From the IMG/VR virus record IMGVR_UViG_3300028048_001604: a stretch of DNA of 63,050 nt, one strand, 5' to 3'. Below, one piece after another: positions 25,067-35,794 of this stretch. Made by a program: the position numbers and the translations under genes. Positions within the stretch are counted from its first letter, which is position 1. The number at the start of each line of letters is the position of its first letter. Under the pieces are notes generated by a model. The model made no database searches. It saw only the letters and a program-made list of their open reading frames with translations, and was not told the DNA's origin. This stretch comes from an uncultured virus (IMG/VR IMGVR_UViG_3300028048_001604) (lineage: Duplodnaviria > Heunggongvirae > Uroviricota > Caudoviricetes).

Positions 25067-27871
25067 CTAATCCTCCTTATACTTGGATTCGTCTAATGGA
25101 GTTGAATCGTTACTGTTTGGTGTGTTAGATGGTACAGGTGGTAAAGAATTGCACCTTGTAACTGCATTATCGTATTTATCCTTGTAAGAGTTATACTCTG
25201 TATAATCTTTTAACTGCTCAACTGCTACCCTAGCATCCTCTAGTAGTAAAGATGTGCCTGTACCACTATACTGCCGTGTACTTAACATATTAAGATACCA
25301 ATCTGCACGAGCTATTCTAGACTGCTTTAATTCTTCGCCTGCCTTAGCCTTTGAATCATCTGCATCAGCCTGAGCCTGTGCGGTAGCCTTATCAATGTTA
25401 GCCTTATCTTGTTCATCTATGAGTGTTTTCCAATCGGAATCAACTGTGGCTTTTAGCTCCGCATATCTATCCTTTACACTCTTTCTGAGGTCTGGTAATG
25501 TGTATTCATCTTCTAGAACATCAAATGCAGAGATAACTTTATTATATGTACTATCTAGATTTTTAGCATCCTCTACATTTTCAATCTTATAAGATAGAAA
25601 ATCTTCGCCTAATTTCTTGGCTTCGTCTGCAAATTTACCCTGCTCTACTGCTTTGGTTTTTGAAGTAAGTTTTTCGGCATTAAGACTGGAATACCATTCA
25701 GTACCGTTTGCTCTACATTCATACCAAGTCTTGCTACCCTTATCTATTGGCTTATCTTCGCCTGCGTACTCATTACCCGACCAATCACGAAGTGATACAG
25801 AATCTGGCTTGGTGAAATCAGTACCGTCTTTATTTTTATCAACAGATGTCATAAAATCATTCCAAATCTGGGCTGGTAATGCACTACCTGACATACCATT
25901 CATAGATTTAGGTGTATCATAGCCTACCCAAACAGTACAAGTGTATGCTGGAGTAAAACCTGAAAACCAAGCGTCTTTATTTGAGTTTGTTGTACCTGTT
26001 TTAGCTGCTGCGATAAGACCATTGTCTGCATACTTATGTGCAGTACCATAACCTTCTAGAAATGTGCCTCTCATCATATCAGTTAACTCAAAAGCTGTAT
26101 CGGCAGTATATACTTGTTTAGATTTATCACTCGTATTAGAAAGTGCATAAATCAAACCATCAGTATCATTCTCTACCCTTTTTAGACAAGTGGTCTCAGT
26201 ATATACCCCATGCATGGCGATTGTTGCATACCCTTTAGCAAGGTCTACGAGTGTTACACCTCTTGTAAAGCCTCCTAAACAAAGAGTAGCTGATACATTA
26301 TCTGCTGAGTCTAATGTAGTAAAGTGCATATTGTTTAGATAATTAATCGACTCGGCATACCCTGTATCTCTATAAATCTGAAAGGCTACTGTATTTTTAC
26401 TTCGTGCTAGAGCCTCTCTACATGACATATCCCCTGCAAAAGAACCATCTGCATTTTCAGGACTATAACTTGAAGTATCATTTTCATCTACATAAACTTT
26501 CTTATCAGTATATATAGTAGATGGTGCTATTGTACCCTCGTTTAAGCCTGCACCATATACAATTAAAGGCTTGATTGTTGAGCCTGGCTGTCTTACTGCT
26601 AAAAATCCTCTATTGAATTGGTCATTTGCACCTCTACCACCAACCATCGCAACTACTGTGCCATTTGTATTATCAATAACTACCCCTGAGGACTGCAGAG
26701 CAAACTTACCATTTTCCTGAACTTCTGTAAAGCCTGCACTATCAGTATCAACTACATTTTGAAGTTTATTCTGCAAGTCTTGGTCGAAAGTAGTTTGAAT
26801 GGTGTACCCACCACTTCTTATCAAGGTAGAATACTTATTATATTCCTTTTCATACATAGCTCTGTATGACTTGCGAGCGTCTTCATTTTCAAATACGTAC
26901 TTAAACTTAAAACCATTTGTCTCCATAAGTTTTAATGTGATACAATGAATAGCATAGCTTACCATATAATTATCACTAGTCTGACTACCCTCAGAGATTG
27001 CTAGATTAAGTTCTTCTTTTACTGCACTCTTATAAGTATTTTCGTCTATATACCCTTGTTTATACATGGCTTTTAGAACTATGTTTCTACGCTTTATAGC
27101 CAAGTCTTTATCTGCTATCGGGTTATATTTGTTTGGAGAGTTTGATACCCCTGCAAGCAAGGCACTCTCTGCGACAGTTAAATCAGTATTAGGTTTACTA
27201 AAGTAAAACTGAGATGCGGTTTCGATACCATAGCAGTTATTACCATAATAACAAGTATTTACATAAAACTCCATGATTTTTGCTTTATCATACTTGTTTT
27301 CTATTTTAGGTGCAAGCATAAGCTCTATAATTTTACGCTTAAATGAACGTTCTGATGTGAGCAAATTGTTTTTGATAACCTGCTGTGTGATAGTGGAACC
27401 ACCTTGTGTAATCTCGCCCTTATGTCTTATTAAACTAAAACCTGCACGAGTCATAGCCTTTAAATCAAAGCCACAATGGGTATAAAAGTTTTTATCCTCT
27501 ATTGCGACATAGGCGTTCTGTACATTTTTATTTACGTCTGTGATGCCTACATACTTGTAGTCGCCTGAGTTGATACTACCTAATTCGTTGCCGTCTTTAT
27601 CTAGAACTACCGTGTTTCCATGCATACGGAAATCAGAGTCCTTTAGATTAGATAACTTATCATAGGTTGTATAAGCAAGTTCATTATATAAAGGTCTCAC
27701 ACTTGCAAAGAGCAGGATACCCGTAATAACTATTGCACTTAATACTATTACTATGGTCTCCAAGATAGCATTTATAGATTTGGCTATCCACCGAATCAAA
27801 GTTAGTATAAAAGTACCAAATTTCGCAAGACATTTTAATACCTTATTTAGAATCGGCTTTATCTTTACCAT
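25067..27871 (-). CDS. Class A penicillin-binding protein (transglycosylase plus transpeptidase)
   Basis: EDKNFYTH.GFD, GGSTITQQ, RKIIE; transpeptidase STIK, SKN, KTGT motifs. Start moved to ATG 27871 (GGAGGAGG RBS). Confidence 0.93.
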   Translation of the reverse strand: MVKIKPILNKVLKCLAKFGTFILTLIRWIAKSINAILETIVIVLSAIVITGILLFASVRPLYNELAYTTYDKLSNLKDSDFRMHGNTVVLDKDGNELGSINSGDYKYVGITDVNKNVQNAYVAIEDKNFYTHCGFDLKAMTRAGFSLIRHKGEITQGGSTITQQVIKNNLLTSERSFKRKIIELMLAPKIENKYDKAKIMEFYVNTCYYGNNCYGIETASQFYFSKPNTDLTVAESALLAGVSNSPNKYNPIADKDLAIKRRNIVLKAMYKQGYIDENTYKSAVKEELNLAISEGSQTSDNYMVSYAIHCITLKLMETNGFKFKYVFENEDARKSYRAMYEKEYNKYSTLIRSGGYTIQTTFDQDLQNKLQNVVDTDSAGFTEVQENGKFALQSSGVVIDNTNGTVVAMVGGRGANDQFNRGFLAVRQPGSTIKPLIVYGAGLNEGTIAPSTIYTDKKVYVDENDTSSYSPENADGSFAGDMSCREALARSKNTVAFQIYRDTGYAESINYLNNMHFTTLDSADNVSATLCLGGFTRGVTLVDLAKGYATIAMHGVYTETTCLKRVENDTDGLIYALSNTSDKSKQVYTADTAFELTDMMRGTFLEGYGTAHKYADNGLIAAAKTGTTNSNKDAWFSGFTPAYTCTVWVGYDTPKSMNGMSGSALPAQIWNDFMTSVDKNKDGTDFTKPDSVSLRDWSGNEYAGEDKPIDKGSKTWYECRANGTEWYSSLNAEKLTSKTKAVEQGKFADEAKKLGEDFLSYKIENVEDAKNLDSTYNKVISAFDVLEDEYTLPDLRKSVKDRYAELKATVDSDWKTLIDEQDKANIDKATAQAQADADDSKAKAGEELKQSRIARADWYLNMLSTRQYSGTGTSLLLEDARVAVEQLKDYTEYNSYKDKYDNAVTRCNSLPPVPSNTPNSNDSTPLDESKYKED

Positions 27872-28292
27872 CTTTAATCCTCCTCCTAAACACATAAATA
27901 ATATCTCCAAAAACTAATAGTTCTAGTACGATTAAAATAATGCTTGCCTTATGTTGATATATAGGAGTAGTAACGAGAATATCGTGTGGGCAGTACTTAT
28001 TTACCCTTATAGATGTAATTTCTGTTTTGATGCCCAAACGCTCTGGCACTACTACTTCCGTTCTATAAAAATTACCCTTGTATCTATACTTTATTGTATA
28101 TTTTGGAAACTTCATAAATACAGGGTCTTTTGAACAAGTGTACTTCTCTACCTTTACCTTTGCATAGTCTCTGCCATTAAATACTAAAGACAAATTACTT
28201 ATATTACATATTAAAATAAACTGCAATAGCAAAATAAAAAGCACTACGAGTGGTAGTGCTTTTAACTTCTTCTTTCTTCTAAAGTGTCTCAT
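27843..28292 (-). CDS. Membrane protein (2 TM, DUF3592-like layout)
   Basis: TM, beta-rich domain, TM; start moved to MRHFRR (GAGGT RBS). Confidence 0.65.
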   Translation of the reverse strand: MRHFRRKKKLKALPLVVLFILLLQFILICNISNLSLVFNGRDYAKVKVEKYTCSKDPVFMKFPKYTIKYRYKGNFYRTEVVVPERLGIKTEITSIRVNKYCPHDILVTTPIYQHKASIILIVLELLVFGDIIYVFRRRIKDGKDKADSK

Positions 28293-28621
28293 TACACATA
28301 CCTCAAAAAATAAATTAATACAATTACAAAAACAAATTCTAAAATTCCAATTACCCATATCTTTGAGTACGTTGTCAATACCCTAAACAATGAGTAGTTA
28401 TTACAACCTTTTGGTATAGTAGTTAATACCAAGTATATTGAAAGTATAACTGTTATCACGGATAACCAAAGTCCAATAGTAACACTAGTTAGGGTTACTA
28501 GTGCAAACTCGGTAAAAATAATGTGCATTATCAAACCAAAAATAAACTTATTAAAGGTTTTTACATCTGGAAATCGTTTATATTCCTCAACATACAACTT
28601 CCGTAAATCAACGTAATTCAT
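28292..28621 (-). CDS. Membrane protein (3 TM)
   Basis: Hydrophobic 109 aa, GGAGG RBS. Confidence 0.7.
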   Translation of the reverse strand: MNYVDLRKLYVEEYKRFPDVKTFNKFIFGLIMHIIFTEFALVTLTSVTIGLWLSVITVILSIYLVLTTIPKGCNNYSLFRVLTTYSKIWVIGILEFVFVIVLIYFLRYV

Positions 28622-28629
28622 TCTGCCTC

Positions 28630-29352
28630 CTATTTAAAACATTTTGTAACATCATTCTTTTGAGCAACTGAGTTAGATATTTGGTCTAACTTTGTATATA
28701 GACCACCAAAAATATTTGCTCTGTAATCTTCTACCTCAGAATCACTCAATTCAGTACCCCTTATAACTAGTCGCTTTGTACCCTTTTCTGTACAGGTAAT
28801 AATTGTAACTACACTATGTTTATCATCATCTGTGTCTAGTACAGACATAACTGTAGGTTCAACTACCTGTTTACTTGTAACAGTGTACGTATGCTTGTTA
28901 CCCTCGGAATCGTAAGCGTCAAAGGTATCGAACAAGTTAAGATTTTTTACCTCGTTTAAGATACACTTAAATGTTTCGCTGGAGTGACCTGCTAAAGCAC
29001 AATTACCCAATGCACCTACTTCAACTGTACCTTCGTAGTGACCTACACCTTTTGCTAAAGATGTCTTTGATGTACCCTCGTATATGTTCGCTAAAACATT
29101 ACATTTAGGTATGCTTAAAACATTTTTATATTCAGTTACATCGTCTACTTTCTGGTCTTCATCTAACTCATTAATTTCGCCTACGGTCTGCTTATTTAAT
29201 ACATCAGATGACATTTCAATATTGGTATTATCTTTATCAGCTACCCTGTATGCTTTCTCTGTTGCTGACTTCTGGTATAAAAATACCCCAACTAGAGATA
29301 GACTGCCTATAAGACAAATGCCTGCTACAATATATAAAAACTTTTTGTCCAT
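28630..29352 (-). CDS. Sortase (class D-like)
   Basis: N-terminal TM; LSIPK, GVGHY, LAGHS (His), TIITC (Cys) and downstream Arg. Confidence 0.9.
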   Translation of the reverse strand: MDKKFLYIVAGICLIGSLSLVGVFLYQKSATEKAYRVADKDNTNIEMSSDVLNKQTVGEINELDEDQKVDDVTEYKNVLSIPKCNVLANIYEGTSKTSLAKGVGHYEGTVEVGALGNCALAGHSSETFKCILNEVKNLNLFDTFDAYDSEGNKHTYTVTSKQVVEPTVMSVLDTDDDKHSVVTIITCTEKGTKRLVIRGTELSDSEVEDYRANIFGGLYTKLDQISNSVAQKNDVTKCFK

Positions 29353-29361
29353 TAAATCTCC

Positions 29362-30048
29362 TTAAACAAAAGTTATTAAAGGAATTCTAGATATATCTAA
29401 AGTACCTTCAAAAATTTCAGATGCCTTGAGAGTTCTATTGTCGTTCTTTGCCATGTTTGCGAGTCTGTCAGCAATATCATTACCCCTGATTCCTGAATGT
29501 GCTTTTGCATGAGTGAAGTCTATAAACAAATTGTTATCCTTAACAAGTTTGTTATATGCGTTTGCATAGGCAATAGACAACTCTTTTTTGTTAGACCATT
29601 CTCCGTTAATCCATTTTTCAATTCCAATAAAATCGTAGTAGATGTGGCAGATATGCTTATCCATCTGAGAGCATAAAGTAAGAGCCGTAATAACGGATGC
29701 TAACTCGCCTGCAAGCTGTCTACTTTTGCTATGCCCTTCTAACTTGAAAGCAAAATCACGAGATACACCGCCAAACAACTCTAAATGAATACCACTAGTA
29801 GGTGTATTTGTTACCTTATCAAAAGAACCATCAGTGAATATACATACTTCTGCTGGGTCTATTGGAGTCTTAACACTAATAGGCTGGACTGGTGCTAAAG
29901 TACCATTTATGTATGCACGAGCATCGTCGTATGACTTAAAACTCTTAAACTCTGCACCACTAAAACCGCTAACCTGTTCTTGACATTCTTCCCAAGTATT
30001 GTATACACCTTTTACTTTACCTTTTTTAACTGCATAAAATTTAGCCAT
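29362..30048 (-). CDS. rnhA: Ribonuclease HI with N-terminal hybrid-binding (viroplasmin-like) domain
   Basis: FYAVKKG...GVYNTWEEC...FKSF; FTDGS, GEL, YYDF, AHSG..GNDIADRLA. Confidence 0.92.
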   Translation of the reverse strand: MAKFYAVKKGKVKGVYNTWEECQEQVSGFSGAEFKSFKSYDDARAYINGTLAPVQPISVKTPIDPAEVCIFTDGSFDKVTNTPTSGIHLELFGGVSRDFAFKLEGHSKSRQLAGELASVITALTLCSQMDKHICHIYYDFIGIEKWINGEWSNKKELSIAYANAYNKLVKDNNLFIDFTHAKAHSGIRGNDIADRLANMAKNDNRTLKASEIFEGTLDISRIPLITFV

Positions 30049-30085
30049 AATACCACCTCATTAACTAAATACTTTAATTTATTAT

Positions 30086-30114
30086 ATTATAACATAAAGT
30101 ATGCTTTCTGTGAA
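30086..30114 (-). promoter_or_regulatory. RNase H/sortase operon promoter TTCACA-17-TATAAT; -35 partly supplied by the IS right end
   Basis: Minus strand TTCACAgaaagcatactttaTGtTATAAT. Confidence 0.7.
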
Positions 30115-30524
30115 CACCCCCATATGCTTAAGCATAGGGGATTCTGTTACTAAATTTATTTATAGCAACTTGTTCATCTGCATATTCGGAAAAGACTTAG
30201 CTTTATACTCTGACGAGCAGTATCACCACATCTAAACTATTATACAGATGACTGAATCCTTAATTTCTACTGCATAACTTGATGTTAATTTCACACAATC
30301 TCTTTTCCGTAAGTTATTTATCACTCTCTAACTCTAAAATTCTTTGTATCATATACAAAATACAATCTGGAGTATTTCTCCAACCTTGTTCCCAAGATTG
30401 AAGTGTTTTCAAATGTATATGAGATTCTTTAGCAAATTGACTTTGACTAAGCCTCGTTTGCTTTCTTAATTCTAAAATAATTCTATTTTTTATAAGTTTA
30501 TTATACCACAATATAGGGTAAATA
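30111..30524 (-). mobile_element. Internally deleted IS200/IS605-family (tnpB-type) miniature element
   Basis: Right-end hairpin AATCCCCTATGCTTAAGCATATGGGGGTGTTCA; XRE HTH gene; short tnpB-like N-terminal stub (VKLTSSYAVEIK, 30259-30294); left junction follows TTGA(T). Confidence 0.6.
30314..30511 (-). CDS. XRE-family HTH protein (start uncertain, possibly degenerate)
   Basis: ELRKQTRLSQSQFA...KTLQSWEQG. The track's TTG start lies inside a promoter (TG-TATAAT). Confidence 0.7.
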   Translation of the reverse strand: MWYNKLIKNRIILELRKQTRLSQSQFAKESHIHLKTLQSWEQGWRNTPDCILYMIQRILELESDK

Positions 30525-30528
30525 TCAA
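30500..30528 (-). promoter_or_regulatory. Hybrid sigma-A promoter TTGATA-17-TATAAT at the element's left junction
   Basis: Minus strand TTGATAtttaccctatattgTGgTATAAT. Confidence 0.7.
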
Positions 30529-30574
30529 GTTTATCTTAAAATTTAATTTATAAATTTTGTCAGCTAAATTATAG

Positions 30575-30603
30575 AAAAGGCAGACCTTTTTATCGGTCTG
30601 CCT
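30575..30603 (-). terminator. Intrinsic terminator of the 1723-aa gene
   Basis: AGGCAGACC-loop-GGTCTGCCT followed by TTT on the minus strand. Confidence 0.75.
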
Positions 30604-30622
30604 AATCTCTATACCCTATGGT

Positions 30623-33600
30623 TTACCAACTCTGAGTATCCGTTGTAGAACCTGAAATCTTGAAGTCAGTACCCATTACCTTGATATTGTTGATAAATAC
30701 GTCACCACTATTTACTGCCTTGGTATTATCGCTTGTGGTATTATCAAATTCTGTAAAAGCATTTGTACCACGGATATTACCCTTCTTGAAGTAGAGTGAG
30801 ATACCGAAGTATGCGTCTTTTGTAGAATTCTTATTAGCTGAATCAGAAAGACTATAATCAATCTTATCTGTAACTGCTACATTACCAAATTCAATATCGT
30901 TGTTTGTGAATCGTCTTACTACAAAAGTACGTACATATTCATCATACCAATGGTCTTTATTTCCAAAGCCTTCAACTGCCTGAGATTTATTACCCTCCGA
31001 TGTTGAAGATACTACTGAATCACGCATAGCCTCTTCGATGCCAGTTTTATCAAACAACTCGGTAGCTTTTGTTGTTTTGCAGTTGTAATCAGATGCAATC
31101 TGAGCAATTAAAGCCTTATACCCAGTCCCATCACGATTAATTGAACCATTTGCAAACTCTAGAGGATAAGAACCTGCGTCTGTAATGCTACCCGTAACAT
31201 CTGCGATATTACCAAGGCTTGTGCTAAAGCCTGTAGCATATACGTTGTTTCCTACATTTAATGTAAGGTCTGCACCATAATTATCCTTGTTCTGTAACTG
31301 CTTAATCCACTCGGTGTAATCGGTTTTTAAATCAGCATACTTAGAAGTATATTTAGGGTCAATACCCGTTGGAATTACAGACTTATACGACTGTCTGATA
31401 CTACCATCTGCGTTCTTAAAGCCTGCTTTATCAACTCCATAGTTAATTGTATCAAGTACATAGCCTGCAGTACGGAGTTTTGCGTCTATCTTAGACTTTA
31501 CAGAAATATCTGAACCTGAGTAAACGGTTAGCTTGTTTGCACCACCACTAGATGCCTGACCTGTTGTAGCGTTGTCTGACATAACACTACCCGTGGCACC
31601 TGTACCGTTTGTATTTCTCATGCTCATAATATACAGTCCGACAGGAGATGTAGACCTCTTCTTTTCACCAATAGTCCAAATACCAGTTCTATTGATACTC
31701 TGTGATGACAACCACTTCTCTACCATCATTTTAACTTCTGGGAAGTAGTCAAAGGCTACCTGACCGTCGAAGTTTTCTACATATGCTGCATTGTAAGAAC
31801 TGCTATCAGTATTTATAGCTTTAGTATAATCTACAAACGAATCACTTACAGGAGATTTACCTGCTTTTGTATCAGTCTCACTATATTTCTGTACATATTC
31901 GTTAAGAATAAGAGAAATCTTTGATGCTGACCAACCTTTGTACTGTAGACCACCTGTACCCTCAAATACGAATGTGTCTTTGCCAATACCAACAGATGCT
32001 GTACTATTTCGTAAAGCGTCAGCCTGTTTTACAGTCTTAGGACTTGAGTTTACGTCTACCCCTAGATTTGAACATAACCAAGTAACATTTGCCTGATTTG
32101 GTTCATACTGTAATGAGGATACCGTTCTATTATCTCCTACTAAACTACGACTTAACATAAGATGGCTGTCTGCCCATACATTACCCTGGGTTCTAATATT
32201 TCTTGAGCCTGTACCCGACATTGGATAAGCTCCTACACACTGAGGGAATGTACTAGTATCGCCATTCTTCAAATATTCAGTACTCTTTGTATCACTAATA
32301 TTACCCGTTGTACTGTAACTATAATTTACGGTTTTATTTGTACCTCTAGGTGCATAGAATGTACCTACTGTAGTATGATACAAACTGAATACAGTATTTG
32401 TGAAGTACTTATTTAATTCATAGTCTGGTAGAGTAACGTCAGCACTTAAAGTAACATCATTAAGGTTCTTATACTTCAGAGCAATAACTGTATACCCAAC
32501 ATTACCACTGCCATCTGTGGCTCCTGCCCTACCCACATAATACTTGTTATCAGCAGTAAAACTGTTGAACTGATTATACCCAAGCGAATCGATGCTGCTT
32601 ATTACTGCATTTAAACTTGTCTTATCTTTGCTTGCCGTATCTAATAGAGTATTTGTATCAACTGGGCTAGAATCATCGTTATTGTTTTGTACATACCAAA
32701 CTGCTGCACAATTATCGCCTGCACTATATTTTTTCCAATCTGTACTATACTTTGATTCAGATGTGTCAGCACTGGTTACAATAGTGTTTGTGTTGGGGTC
32801 TACTGTAAGCTCTATATATCTCTGATTGACCTTATCTACTCTCTGGCATACCCATGCTGCAACACCAACATCACCGCCTGCTGTAATAGTGCCACCATCT
32901 GCTGATAGAGTAAATGTAGTTCCTTTGCTACGAGCATTTGTAAGGTTTGAACCTGAGAAACTGTTTGTTTGATTATTAACTGAGCTTGCACGTGTTGCAT
33001 TTGCATAAGCCAAGGCACTATCTGCAGAATTTACATCATGGCTTCTTACAGTATCCCAAATCTTAGCTTGACTTGAATCCCAAACATTACCAATAGCATT
33101 AGATTTTGTAGTCGTACTGCAAGAAAAACTGTAGTTTGCATAACTGAATACATCTAATGCGTTCTGTACACTACGCTGACCTGCCAAAGGCTGTGCCCAA
33201 GATGCCCAACCTTGAATGTACTTAGTATTGTTTGTGTCAATAGGAACATAATATTCTCCGTTTGCTACACCTTTGGCAATACCATATGAACCTGTTATTG
33301 CATTTGCTGGGTATCCAAACGTTCTATACTGCCATCTGTCGTAATCATCATTACTAGTATTATTTACTTCTGCTACTGTCGTAACCTTAATATTGTTTGA
33401 ATACCCAAGGTCTGCGTCGTTTACGATATGAGAAGTAGCATGAACACTACCATGTGTATCGTAGGAAACTGAAACATAATCCGCTAAATATACATAATCA
33501 AGATATGTACCGTTACCCCAATCATACCAATAAAGTCTAGGAAGTTCCGCAATGCCACGATTATTAAGTATAGTTATTACATCATCTTTAGTCCCGTTCC

Positions 33601-35794
33601 ATCTTCCACCTGATAAATTCATTGTTTCTGATATTGCACTGTCCAAGTCTCCATATTCAAATAGAAAAGGTCCTTGATTTTTTGTTTCGTTAAGTGGGAA
33701 TCTGTTACTGTCTGGCTTCCAGTTTGAGTATCCGTATACATGAACAGTAGTGCCACCACCAACCTGATAGCATCCTTTAACTTCGCAGGTATTTGTACTC
33801 AAATACCCCCAATATGTTTTGGCGCTTACTCTACCATTGAAAACACCACCGCCAGTACCTGCAGTAGTAACTGATATAGCTTTAGCAGTCTTAGGTTTAC
33901 TTAAAGCTTTAGCAATACTAGAAAAGTCTGGAGTATTTACTGTACCAAGATTACTTACAGGTAAGCCTGTACCGATAATGCCCAAGATTAAAAACAGAGA
34001 AAGGAAAGTATGCTTATTAATTATACCCTTGTCACGGAGTTTTGCATAGATGAAAATACCCAATGCAAGTACACCTAAAAGGATGCCTGCTAGGATAAGA
34101 TACATTCTGGTTACACCTGTCTGTGCAAGAGTACCACCTTTACCACTGCCTGAATAAATATCATCGTTTGTATATGTATAACTCATAGCCTCAACCTGAG
34201 GTGAGTTTTCTTTGATGTCTTTAACCTCAAAGGTCTGCGAATCAAAACCACCATTTTCTGTTACTGCACTTACAGTATAAACACCATTTGCAGTAATTGT
34301 AAATTCTGTGCTAGTTACATAAGCATTTGAATTAGTCTGACCATTTAAACTAAAAATAGATGGCTTATCAGCACTTACCTTAACAACAAGCTTGTTGTCT
34401 GTAATATTACCCAAACTGTATGTGAGTTTTACAGACTCCGTATTATCAGTTTTGCTTGCCTCTGGCATAACATTTGGAGCCTCTACATGAGAGTTGTCGA
34501 TTAAGTCTGTAGCTTTTGGTGCCTTAAACTGTGCCATTAAAGGGATAGATACAATATCTTTATCATCTACATTAGTATTATCCTTATCTTTAGGTATTAA
34601 AGATAGTCTTACGTCTAAAGAATACAAGTTTCCTACATCTGGAGCAACATCGCTTGTGCAAGTTAACTTTAGGCTGTTACCCTTCTTAGGTAGGTCTGCA
34701 AGAGTATATGTTTTCTGAACTGTTGTACCGTCAGACTTTGACAGTCTGTAAGTAGCCTGACCAAGCTTATACCCTGCTTTTGTTACGGAATCATCTAAAT
34801 CTAGAGATGCGTCAATATTGTATGTGTAGTAAGGTTCTGTAGTATTACCATCTAAATCAGCGTACTGTACCTTGTTCGCTACTACGTTGTTAAGCTTAAG
34901 AGATACACCTGAGAGAGTGCTAGGTGCTGTATTTTTGATAAGGTCTGATAACCTTATTTCAGTACCCTCGTTTACGTCATACTGATTAGGGTCAATCCAA
35001 TAACACTCATTCTTATCATCTAAAAATCCGTTAGTACCGCTTGCACCTGGAGCCTTAAATGGTTTAGCCTGAACTCTGATGCTAACGTCTGGCATACCTG
35101 CATCCAACATCTTTGTATAAAGTCCCGAAGTGATAACTTTAGATACAAGCATACATTTTGAGTTTATCTGCTCTTCATCAGTAAGTGTTTCATCTTTAGG
35201 AACATCCAAATCTTTTAGTACTTCATCTAATAGCTTATGATATGTAGCATTATATTCTGAATGGGCATTAAAAAAGTCCATTATGTTTTTATAAACAGGT
35301 TCGCAAGGAAATACCCCATAACTGCCTGCCCAAGTTGTTAAAGCACTACTAATATTACTACCATAAGTAGGTTTATCTTTATGGTAGGTTCTGTCTGCGA
35401 TACCATTTGAATTTGTATCGGTTGTATGATAACTACCATAAAAATTGTAGCCATACAAAGTAGTACCATCTTTATCGTATGTCTTACCTGTCGATTCAAC
35501 ATATCTGCCATAGTAGTTCTCGCCTAGTTTAGATGTGTTAAATCTGAACAGTAAGCACATATTCTCATTAGTACCCTTATCTGTATGGGTAACCTTCAAG
35601 TCCCCATTATCGGTACTAACTGCAACATTACTGCAATCAACAATAGGCAAATACCCACTGATGTCTGGTACTAGAAAGCCTGAAATGTCGTCTGCTTTAG
35701 CTTTTGGCTGTATAAATACCCCTAGACAGGAGCAGAATACCGCTATGACTGCTAGTACAAGAGCGACTCCTTTCATATTTAGTCTCTTAATCAT
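30623..35794 (-). CDS. Very large secreted/cell-surface protein with internal LAQTG sorting signal and second signal-peptide-like segment
   Basis: N-terminal signal peptide ending PKAKA; LAQTG (aa 556-560) + TM + basic residues; second hydrophobic stretch then PKTAKA (about aa 639); S/T/N/G-rich beta-type sequence. Confidence 0.8.
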   Translation of the reverse strand: MIKRLNMKGVALVLAVIAVFCSCLGVFIQPKAKADDISGFLVPDISGYLPIVDCSNVAVSTDNGDLKVTHTDKGTNENMCLLFRFNTSKLGENYYGRYVESTGKTYDKDGTTLYGYNFYGSYHTTDTNSNGIADRTYHKDKPTYGSNISSALTTWAGSYGVFPCEPVYKNIMDFFNAHSEYNATYHKLLDEVLKDLDVPKDETLTDEEQINSKCMLVSKVITSGLYTKMLDAGMPDVSIRVQAKPFKAPGASGTNGFLDDKNECYWIDPNQYDVNEGTEIRLSDLIKNTAPSTLSGVSLKLNNVVANKVQYADLDGNTTEPYYTYNIDASLDLDDSVTKAGYKLGQATYRLSKSDGTTVQKTYTLADLPKKGNSLKLTCTSDVAPDVGNLYSLDVRLSLIPKDKDNTNVDDKDIVSIPLMAQFKAPKATDLIDNSHVEAPNVMPEASKTDNTESVKLTYSLGNITDNKLVVKVSADKPSIFSLNGQTNSNAYVTSTEFTITANGVYTVSAVTENGGFDSQTFEVKDIKENSPQVEAMSYTYTNDDIYSGSGKGGTLAQTGVTRMYLILAGILLGVLALGIFIYAKLRDKGIINKHTFLSLFLILGIIGTGLPVSNLGTVNTPDFSSIAKALSKPKTAKAISVTTAGTGGGVFNGRVSAKTYWGYLSTNTCEVKGCYQVGGGTTVHVYGYSNWKPDSNRFPLNETKNQGPFLFEYGDLDSAISETMNLSGGRWNGTKDDVITILNNRGIAELPRLYWYDWGNGTYLDYVYLADYVSVSYDTHGSVHATSHIVNDADLGYSNNIKVTTVAEVNNTSNDDYDRWQYRTFGYPANAITGSYGIAKGVANGEYYVPIDTNNTKYIQGWASWAQPLAGQRSVQNALDVFSYANYSFSCSTTTKSNAIGNVWDSSQAKIWDTVRSHDVNSADSALAYANATRASSVNNQTNSFSGSNLTNARSKGTTFTLSADGGTITAGGDVGVAAWVCQRVDKVNQRYIELTVDPNTNTIVTSADTSESKYSTDWKKYSAGDNCAAVWYVQNNNDDSSPVDTNTLLDTASKDKTSLNAVISSIDSLGYNQFNSFTADNKYYVGRAGATDGSGNVGYTVIALKYKNLNDVTLSADVTLPDYELNKYFTNTVFSLYHTTVGTFYAPRGTNKTVNYSYSTTGNISDTKSTEYLKNGDTSTFPQCVGAYPMSGTGSRNIRTQGNVWADSHLMLSRSLVGDNRTVSSLQYEPNQANVTWLCSNLGVDVNSSPKTVKQADALRNSTASVGIGKDTFVFEGTGGLQYKGWSASKISLILNEYVQKYSETDTKAGKSPVSDSFVDYTKAINTDSSSYNAAYVENFDGQVAFDYFPEVKMMVEKWLSSQSINRTGIWTIGEKKRSTSPVGLYIMSMRNTNGTGATGSVMSDNATTGQASSGGANKLTVYSGSDISVKSKIDAKLRTAGYVLDTINYGVDKAGFKNADGSIRQSYKSVIPTGIDPKYTSKYADLKTDYTEWIKQLQNKDNYGADLTLNVGNNVYATGFSTSLGNIADVTGSITDAGSYPLEFANGSINRDGTGYKALIAQIASDYNCKTTKATELFDKTGIEEAMRDSVVSSTSEGNKSQAVEGFGNKDHWYDEYVRTFVVRRFTNNDIEFGNVAVTDKIDYSLSDSANKNSTKDAYFGISLYFKKGNIRGTNAFTEFDNTTSDNTKAVNSGDVFINNIKVMGTDFKISGSTTDTQSW

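Follow-up and report, generated by a model that had tools for sequence, protein, structure and literature searches.

A probable IS200/IS605-family relic upstream of an RNase H gene on an uncultured rumen replicon, and the hybrid promoter predicted at its right end

We analysed a DNA stretch of 63,050 nucleotides from an uncultured virus of the class Caudoviricetes (IMG/VR record IMGVR_UViG_3300028048_001604), referred to below as the window. Between a surface-protein gene and an RNase H gene, both on the minus strand, lie a promoter-like site (P1), a small helix-turn-helix (HTH) gene of XRE type, the first codons of a tnpB gene, a structured DNA end with a hairpin, and a second promoter-like site (P2) immediately in front of the RNase H gene (Table 1). 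A first-pass annotation had listed the two promoters, HTH gene, stub, hairpin and RNase H gene in a minus-strand reading, and all are present. The DNA from about 30550 to 30110 is in all likelihood an immobile relic of an IS200/IS605-family insertion sequence (IS), truncated at its left and internally deleted, which would explain a 0.5-kb 'intergenic' stretch on this uncultured rumen replicon.

Two blastn blocks link the window to L056, a locus with a full-length element. Window 30550..30256 matched L056 4962..5253 (79.7% identity, E 1e-71), and window 30262..30105 matched L056 6542..6699 (78.3% identity, E 4e-28). The first block runs from the stop codon of the L056 transposase gene, tnpA, through the tnpA-HTH spacer and the HTH gene into 12 codons of tnpB; the second holds the final few tnpB codons and the right end. 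A second locus of the same metagenome-assembled genome (MAG), L057, which is 83% identical to L056, aligned to the window in the same two-block pattern, with right-end identity to both loci of 78-79%. About 1.29 kb of tnpB (L056 5253 to 6542) is missing where the blocks meet, at 30259/30258. Upstream of this junction, the GTG at 30294 opens a 20-codon stub reading VKLTSSYAVEIK, and L056 TnpB starts MKLTSSYAIEIK; 10 of 12 residues match over L056 residues 1-12. The stub had been attributed to a TnpB N-terminus, and this match, lying within a DNA alignment of about 80% identity, bears the attribution out. The proposed IS200/IS605 origin is likewise upheld by homology to L056, L057 and a third full-length locus, L059, all with tnpA, HTH gene and tnpB; the first two, which have the relic's kind of right end, are full-length relatives of the sort that a search with the ends had been proposed to find. 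A Pfam search with the 30-amino-acid stub open reading frame (ORF) alone gave no match. In the 63-kb window we found no tnpA (best tblastn match of L056 TnpA, E 2.1), no tnpB beyond codons 1-12 and the last few codons, and no second copy of the relic. With neither TnpA nor a left end the element is therefore immobile, and with no TnpB it cannot cut.

The reference-genome contigs contain six loci with close relatives of the HTH gene, five of which (L056, L057, L058, L059 and L060) carry a Y1 transposase gene directly upstream (Pfam Y1_Tnp, E 8e-33; NCBIfam transpos_IS200, 122.9 bits with a cut-off of 55). In L056, L057 and L059 the HTH gene is followed by one for a divergent TnpB starting MK(L/I)TSSYA(I/V)EIK, which matched NCBIfam guided_TnpB at E 6.7e-17 and 61.8 bits (below the cut-off of 100) and TIGR01766 at its cut-off. 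L056 TnpB aligned to solved Cas12f and TnpB chains across the RuvC motifs AVDLG, FEHL and NCD...N. The divergent protein (L056:5215-6564) was also seen to be devoid of the zinc-finger CxxC cysteines, reading TSKLAFDGSG against TSQTCSKCG in the solved chains. The corresponding gene of L060 is a canonical TnpB (NF038281, 471 bits), and that of L058 is of the same kind by N-terminal similarity, split into shorter ORFs. One tnpA-HTH pair is joined to both TnpB types, the divergent (L056, L057, L059) and the canonical (L058, L060). Upstream of tnpA, a left-end hairpin with an GCTTTAGC-loop is present in L057, L058 and L060, and a similar one with a CTTTAG loop in L059. TnpB relatives sharing 28-52% identity were found in 12 genomes besides the MAG G001, among 401 sampled from its order (13 counting G001), and on plasmids from both R. 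albus 7 and B. proteoclasticus B316. In the right ends of all these relatives, a covarying hairpin precedes a terminal GAG..TTCAC. The R. albus 7 plasmid NC_014824.1 (L113, L115-L121) holds five near-full copies of a related tnpB element (94-100% identity) and two solo left ends; with their sharp junctions, these copies are a ready-made set for studying the TnpB clade in a cultured strain.

At the right end of the relic, the hairpin (30140..30117) is followed by GTGTTCAC. A terminus T(T/C)CA(C/A) is common to 14 of the 15 aligned right ends, and five copies on R. albus 7 pRUMAL01 part company immediately after TTCAC. The terminus of L057 is TTCAA, and similarity of its flank to the uninterrupted paralogues L228 and L229 starts at the next base. 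In these paralogues the base matching the start of the L057 flank is preceded by CTTAT or TTTAT, and in L228 the homologue of the L057 left flank stands directly in front. We built a covariance model (R1) from 12 distant right ends, leaving out the window, L056 and L057. Its best match in 83 kb was window 30230..30110 at full model length (37.1 bits; E 2.5e-7, a rough value), the next-best window match reaching 12.7 bits. The element therefore ends at 30110 (TTCAC), where the R. albus copies, the L057 paralogues and the R1 match all place the boundary. A right end running on through the spacer and -10 box of P2, as far as 30082 where the L057 alignment stops, was ruled out by the R. albus copies and the L057 paralogues.

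A possible omegaRNA had been suggested, with a covariance search of 30111-30260 to look for it; homology and the R1 match identify the 149 nt retained before the RNase H promoter as a right end with its guide-RNA scaffold. Folded as RNA, these 149 nt reached -46.8 kcal/mol, compared with -30.0 +/- 3.4 kcal/mol for shuffles (z -4.96). Compensatory changes were seen at 8 of 13 consensus pairs in 15 sequences and at 6 of 48 pairs in the three close sequences (window, L056, L057). Such a covarying structure would serve a single-stranded DNA end equally well. An Rfam search to E 10 returned two chance matches only. The exact hairpin was absent from viral_contigs, and a degenerate 17-nt right-end motif hit 85 viral loci, of which 80 were fetched and none was related by blastn. 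Among 401 genomes sampled from the family of G001, right-end DNA was found only in G001, plus one 21-nt chance match. Separately, a high-depth contig (38.7) of another organism in sequencing run X3 aligned to 30092-30175 with deletions of 3 nt at 30138 and 1 nt at 30144; past the hairpin region its sequence no longer resembles the window. This contig may represent a further member of the right-end family. Two related Lachnospiraceae MAGs (G001 and G188) also share a repeat of about 55-70 nt (L057:6782-6852; core ...GAGCGAAAGCGTGGCTTCGCTGGAATACTTCCTTGCC...), seen on at least 12 of their contigs and adjoining the L057 insertion site and the paralogues of that site.

Because the right end stops inside the -35 hexamer of P2, this promoter-like site is part element and part flank. 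The element contributes five of the six -35 bases, and the flank contributes the sixth (A), the 17-nt spacer and the extended -10 box TGTTATAAT. P2 stands about 31 nt upstream of the RNase H start codon, and P1 and P2 are the two best promoter-like sites in 27500-31500. Over the whole window, 12 sites (ten on the coding strand) agree with the consensus at 11 or all 12 positions, compared with 3.9 +/- 2.1 in 100 shuffles; this excess shows strong consensus promoters to be a real feature of the replicon. The window also contains seven perfect TTGACA-N16/17-TATAAT promoters, six on the coding strand. We predict that P2 is an active, IS-generated hybrid promoter. Two of the replicon's strongest promoter-like sites are transposon-derived, P1 wholly and P2 partly.

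P1 superimposes column for column on a TTGACA-17-TATAGT site downstream of tnpA in L056 and L057. The same boxes occur upstream of the HTH gene in L061, and similar ones in L058 and L059. Similarity to L056 extends about 25 nt upstream of the P1 -35 box, as far as 30550. By these alignments P1 is not an insertion junction but the element's own internal promoter for an HTH-tnpB unit. Between P1 and the RNase H gene the only terminator-like site is a weak one within the HTH ORF, which is unconserved in L056.

The HTH ORF matched Pfam HTH_3 at 26 bits (gathering cut-off 23; E 9.9e-6), and L056 HTH matched the window with 81% identity across 58 residues (tblastn). The protein has 76 relatives, nearly all of 63-89% identity, and one relative is present on 421 contigs. 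In the homologues the -10 box ends 6 nt ahead of the ATG, and a leaderless mRNA is therefore implied for the family. Many database ORFs have an extra 'MWYSKL' N-terminus, which is translated TGGTATAGTAAACTT, the extended -10 box of the HTH promoter. The homologue consensus begins MKN with an ATG start. In the window the corresponding triplet (30493-30491) is ATA (Ile), which the first-pass annotation had missed and which a contig from the independent run X3 reproduces without differences. The sole upstream in-frame ATG, GTG or TTG start is a TTG at 30511 that overlaps the P1 -10 region. The HTH gene of the window is probably inactive, to judge from this start position. Members of the same HTH family were also noted outside any transposon, at L061:5001-5261 in a sheep-rumen Lachnospiraceae MAG and at L050:4342-4533 in a viral contig. 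Since the L061 gene has the same promoter, the P1-HTH module seems to move between kinds of mobile element.

The left side of the relic is less clear-cut. Homology to L056 begins at 30550, equivalent to the L056 tnpA stop, and the 11 nt at 30554-30544 are identical to the L057 left junction, TTTAT/AAATTA (the slash marks the boundary). No left-end hairpin motif is present between 30544 and 30620. Left junctions of the tnpA-HTH subfamily are TTTAT in 4 of 4 cases; those of the sister subfamily on pRUMAL01 are TTGAC (5/6) or CTGAC (1/6). If 30554-30550 is the target motif, the old site read TTTATA-17-TGTTATAAT, and a deletion between AAATT(A) repeats then took the left-end hairpin and tnpA. An old TTGACA box is favoured by the TTCAC terminus, which is that of the TTGAC-targeting sister subfamily, and by the mostly perfect TTGACA promoters of the replicon. 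We consider TTGACA and TTTATA about equally likely as the pre-insertion -35 box. Whichever motif it was, the element lies precisely where the -35 box of a well-placed extended -10 promoter belongs.

An allele with the empty site, for which a search had been proposed, was not found. RNase H relatives were absent from viral_contigs; in metagenome_contigs they occurred at 49 loci, all distant. No full-length match there exceeded 35% identity, and neither a syntenic locus nor an empty site was among them. No joint was seen in four runs compared with the window, and run X3 has the same sequence. In run X10 a relative that is mostly 95-99% alike spans both flanking genes, and its contig gap at 29903-30623 makes it uninformative here.

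We propose that the source element carried tnpA, a small XRE HTH gene and a divergent tnpB, in that order between its left and right ends. It has lost everything left of the tnpA stop codon, including the left-end hairpin and tnpA, and a 1.29-kb internal deletion has fused tnpB codon 12 to the final few tnpB codons. What remains is P1, the HTH gene with its ATG changed to ATA, a 12-codon tnpB stub and a complete structured right end. In intact copies P1 would start a leaderless HTH-tnpB transcript, and the right end would encode a guide-RNA scaffold. In the window, the RNase H-sortase-penicillin-binding protein (PBP) genes would be transcribed from P2 and probably also be read from P1, with no terminator intervening. 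If the HTH protein normally represses P1, and if it has ceased to be made, P1 would be free of repression. An uninterrupted allele would join the terminator of the surface-protein gene directly to '(motif)/AGAAAGCATACTTTATGTTATAAT'.

Several observations weigh against this account. The same kind of right end was found in only two relatives, L056 and L057 of one MAG. About 30 nt of flank past the right end are loosely alike in the window, L056 and L057; we tentatively treat this likeness as AT-rich chance, since the L056 flank codes for a host gene and the paralogues fix the L057 boundary. AUA-initiated translation of the HTH protein is possible. No allele without the relic was found, so we infer both the order of events and the pre-insertion sequence. 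Contigs from RNA libraries over parts of the stretch show neither transcript start nor strand, and these libraries may contain DNA.

The first-pass annotation had drawn the element differently, as a complete miniature element of about 413 bp between TTGA (30525) and CA (30110) that inserted into a TTGACA box, borrowed TTGA for its own promoter and gave back TTCA. Its cut-and-join arithmetic holds: removing 30524..30111 (414 bp) joins TTGA to CA. As evidence of insertion this counts for little, since any near-consensus pair of -35 boxes does the same. The habits of the R. albus 7 sister subfamily, which inserts after TTGAC at five of six left junctions and ends in TTCAC, would also suit such an event. 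It is the left cut, TTGA/TA, that fails. In alignment, the TTGATA at 30528 falls on the internal TTGACA that the full copies have between tnpA and their HTH gene, so that the TTGA was not borrowed; homology continues about 25 nt past this box, to 30550; tnpA and the left-end hairpin are absent; and the left junctions of the closest subfamily are TTTAT in all four cases. We find a complete miniature element scarcely credible. Of the claim that a promoter was rebuilt at both junctions, the right half survives, as the element ends inside the P2 -35 box; the left half does not, P1 being internal. The right-hand cut had found a real element end, placed one base away from the true one after TTCAC. 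A habit of targeting -35 boxes had been claimed as well. We scored 19 right-end junctions for a -10 hexamer that agrees with the consensus at 5 or all 6 positions at a 16-18 spacer, and 3 had a promoter-like flank (window, L057 and L092). Our rough estimate of the chance rate in AT-rich DNA is about 5%, which leaves a small excess in a small sample. With only these 3 of 19 junctions, and a closest subfamily that inserts after TTTAT, we dismissed the view that the family generally lands in promoters.

Two further explanations grant the decay of the element and give its remains a function. The reRNA of ISDra2 is about 150 nt long and comprises the tnpB 3' end and the right end, its guide being about 16 nt of flanking DNA (PMC8612924). 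By analogy, the locus might survive as a guide only, with P1 transcribing the scaffold plus 16-20 nt of flank, and a TnpB supplied in trans, from a full-length element of the host, cutting replicons with an uninterrupted site. The deletion spares the whole structured right end, and its 149 nt compare with the ISDra2 length, guide included; compensatory changes preserve the structure between the window and L056; and upstream stands a strong promoter that no terminator separates from it. A trans-acting omegaRNA from the relic is possible. However, the 63-kb window contains no TnpB gene, the right end must be kept in any case as the source of the P2 -35 box, and with about 20% divergence from the relatives its conservation could reflect recent ancestry rather than selection. 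We judge a guide-only locus improbable. Somewhat less improbable, and still unlikely, is that the HTH gene is still expressed, by AUA initiation or from read-through transcripts, and that its product was co-opted to regulate the RNase H-sortase-PBP genes. The frame of 59 codons is open, with up to 89% identity to homologues, its HTH_3 match lies above the Pfam cut-off, and the P1-HTH module exists outside transposons in L061 and the viral contig L050. Yet ATA replaces the start codon of the relatives, whose arrangement implies a leaderless mRNA, and leaderless translation needs a 5' AUG; nor was an HTH operator identified at P2. The left-truncated, internally deleted relic remains our preferred reading.

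Table 1. Features of the relic and its surroundings in the window, and relatives of the source element in reference-genome contigs.
Feature	Position	Strand	Basis or remark
1723-aa surface-protein gene	ORF 30623-35794, stop at 30623	minus	upstream of relic
Intrinsic terminator of the 1723-aa surface-protein gene	30578..30603	minus	9-bp stem with 6 GC pairs, then T run
TTTAT (30554-30550) + AAATTA (30549-30544), TTTATAAATTA	30544..30554	minus	ambiguous: target motif + first 6 nt of left end, or tnpA-stop region
P1, TTGATA-17-TATAAT with TG extension	30500..30528	minus	11/12 consensus positions
XRE-type HTH gene	30314..30493 (ORF 30314-30511)	minus	59 codons + stop, ATA in place of ATG
tnpB stub, first 12 codons	30259..30294	minus	GTG start (relatives ATG), upstream Shine-Dalgarno kept
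Internal-deletion junction	30258..30259	minus	two blastn blocks abut; confirmed by alignments
Right end + last few tnpB codons, guide-RNA (omegaRNA/reRNA) scaffold region	30110..30258	minus	homology to L056 6542-6695
Subterminal right-end hairpin CCCCTATGCTTAAGCATATGGGG	30117..30140	minus	stem covaries across 15 family members
TTCAC, right-end terminal pentanucleotide	30110..30114	minus	family terminus '...GAG..TTCAC/'
P2, TTCAC/A-17-TATAAT with TG extension (GTGTTCACA-17-TATAAT)	30086..30114	minus	11/12 consensus positions
Flank = P2 spacer, candidate guide segment if an omegaRNA is made	30090..30109	minus	by analogy with ISDra2
RNase H gene	29362-30048, ATG at 30048	minus	Cauli_VI E 5e-20, RNase_H E 8.7e-11; first gene downstream of relic
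Sortase gene	28630-29352	minus	after RNase H gene
Class A PBP gene	25067-27910	minus	Transgly + Transpeptidase; same strand as RNase H and sortase genes
IS605 subtype with 59-aa XRE HTH gene between tnpA and tnpB	L056:4554-6695, L057:4423-6696, L059:2104-2999, L058:4537-5201, L060:4631-6460

Judging from the remainder of the window, the relic sits on a large replicon, phage- or plasmid-like, from an uncultured rumen Firmicute. Apart from five, the ORFs of 120 or more amino acids are all on the minus strand. Replication genes encode topoisomerase II subunits, a DnaB-like helicase, an NAD ligase and a ParB-HNH protein; there is also a T2SSE ATPase, and the cell-wall genes encode a class A PBP, an L,D-transpeptidase and a sortase. 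The sequencing runs containing the window carry the label bovine gut metagenome. Neither the plasmid collection, where a single 56-nt match came up, nor the phage collection gave a true match to the relic DNA, and a 24-kb piece of the window was unmatched in both. The 1723-amino-acid protein upstream has an internal LAQTG motif followed by a hydrophobic segment. The terminator of its gene is host sequence, immediately outside the relic.

Like members of the IS605 group (ISDra2, IS608), the relatives encode a Y1 transposase and a TnpB-type protein, carry a subterminal hairpin at each end, insert 3' of a short motif, and have a right end coding for a structured RNA that stops at the element boundary. 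For ISDra2 a TTGAT target and no target duplication are described (PMC8612924). The subfamily differs from the group in its extra XRE HTH gene between tnpA and tnpB, its divergent TnpB and its apparent TTTAT target, and the window copy differs further in having no tnpA, no left end and almost no tnpB. Short, nearly non-coding and IS200/IS605-derived, the relic also resembles the miniature IS200/IS605 derivatives termed palindrome-associated transposable elements (PATEs). These keep both end hairpins and are mobilisable in trans, whereas the relic has no left end. It is an ordinary decayed IS200/IS605 element with a neat junction, and it overturns nothing.

Hybrid promoters are classic for IS with terminal inverted repeats, including IS1, IS2, IS256, IS257 and others. 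P2 is built alike, its -35 box lying mostly in the IS terminus and its spacer and -10 box in the flank. In a limited literature search, from which we claim no absence, we found neither a hybrid promoter at an IS200/IS605 right end nor an XRE HTH accessory gene in IS605 elements. The relic shows cleanly how the right end of an IS200/IS605 element (TTCAC) can supply a -35 box, in a group of elements usually seen as transcriptionally quiet.

For the HTH gene, the nearest likeness is to Arc, a ribbon-helix-helix protein of IS605-family elements that binds and represses the native tnpB promoter (bioRxiv 10.64898/2026.09.24.754181). The preprint does not discuss an XRE HTH accessory gene: 'HTH' and 'XRE' do not occur in it and 'helix-turn-helix' occurs once. 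Both systems place a small DNA-binding protein inside a transposon beside a strong internal promoter driving tnpB; they differ in that the protein here has an XRE-type HTH fold rather than a ribbon-helix-helix fold, and its gene lies between tnpA and tnpB, on the same strand, with a leaderless transcript. By this comparison the HTH gene of intact relatives is probably the counterpart of the Arc repressors. A combined scheme, in which derepressed P1 of a guide-only relic makes an omegaRNA with the RNase H promoter spacer as its guide, for use by TnpB in trans from intact host elements against competing replicons with the uninterrupted site, and in which, separately, the leaderless XRE HTH protein of the relatives takes the role of Arc, strikes us as no more probable than the guide-only locus itself. 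The IS605 subtype with its XRE accessory gene and leaderless internal promoter forms a natural parallel to the Arc repressors of the 2026 preprint.

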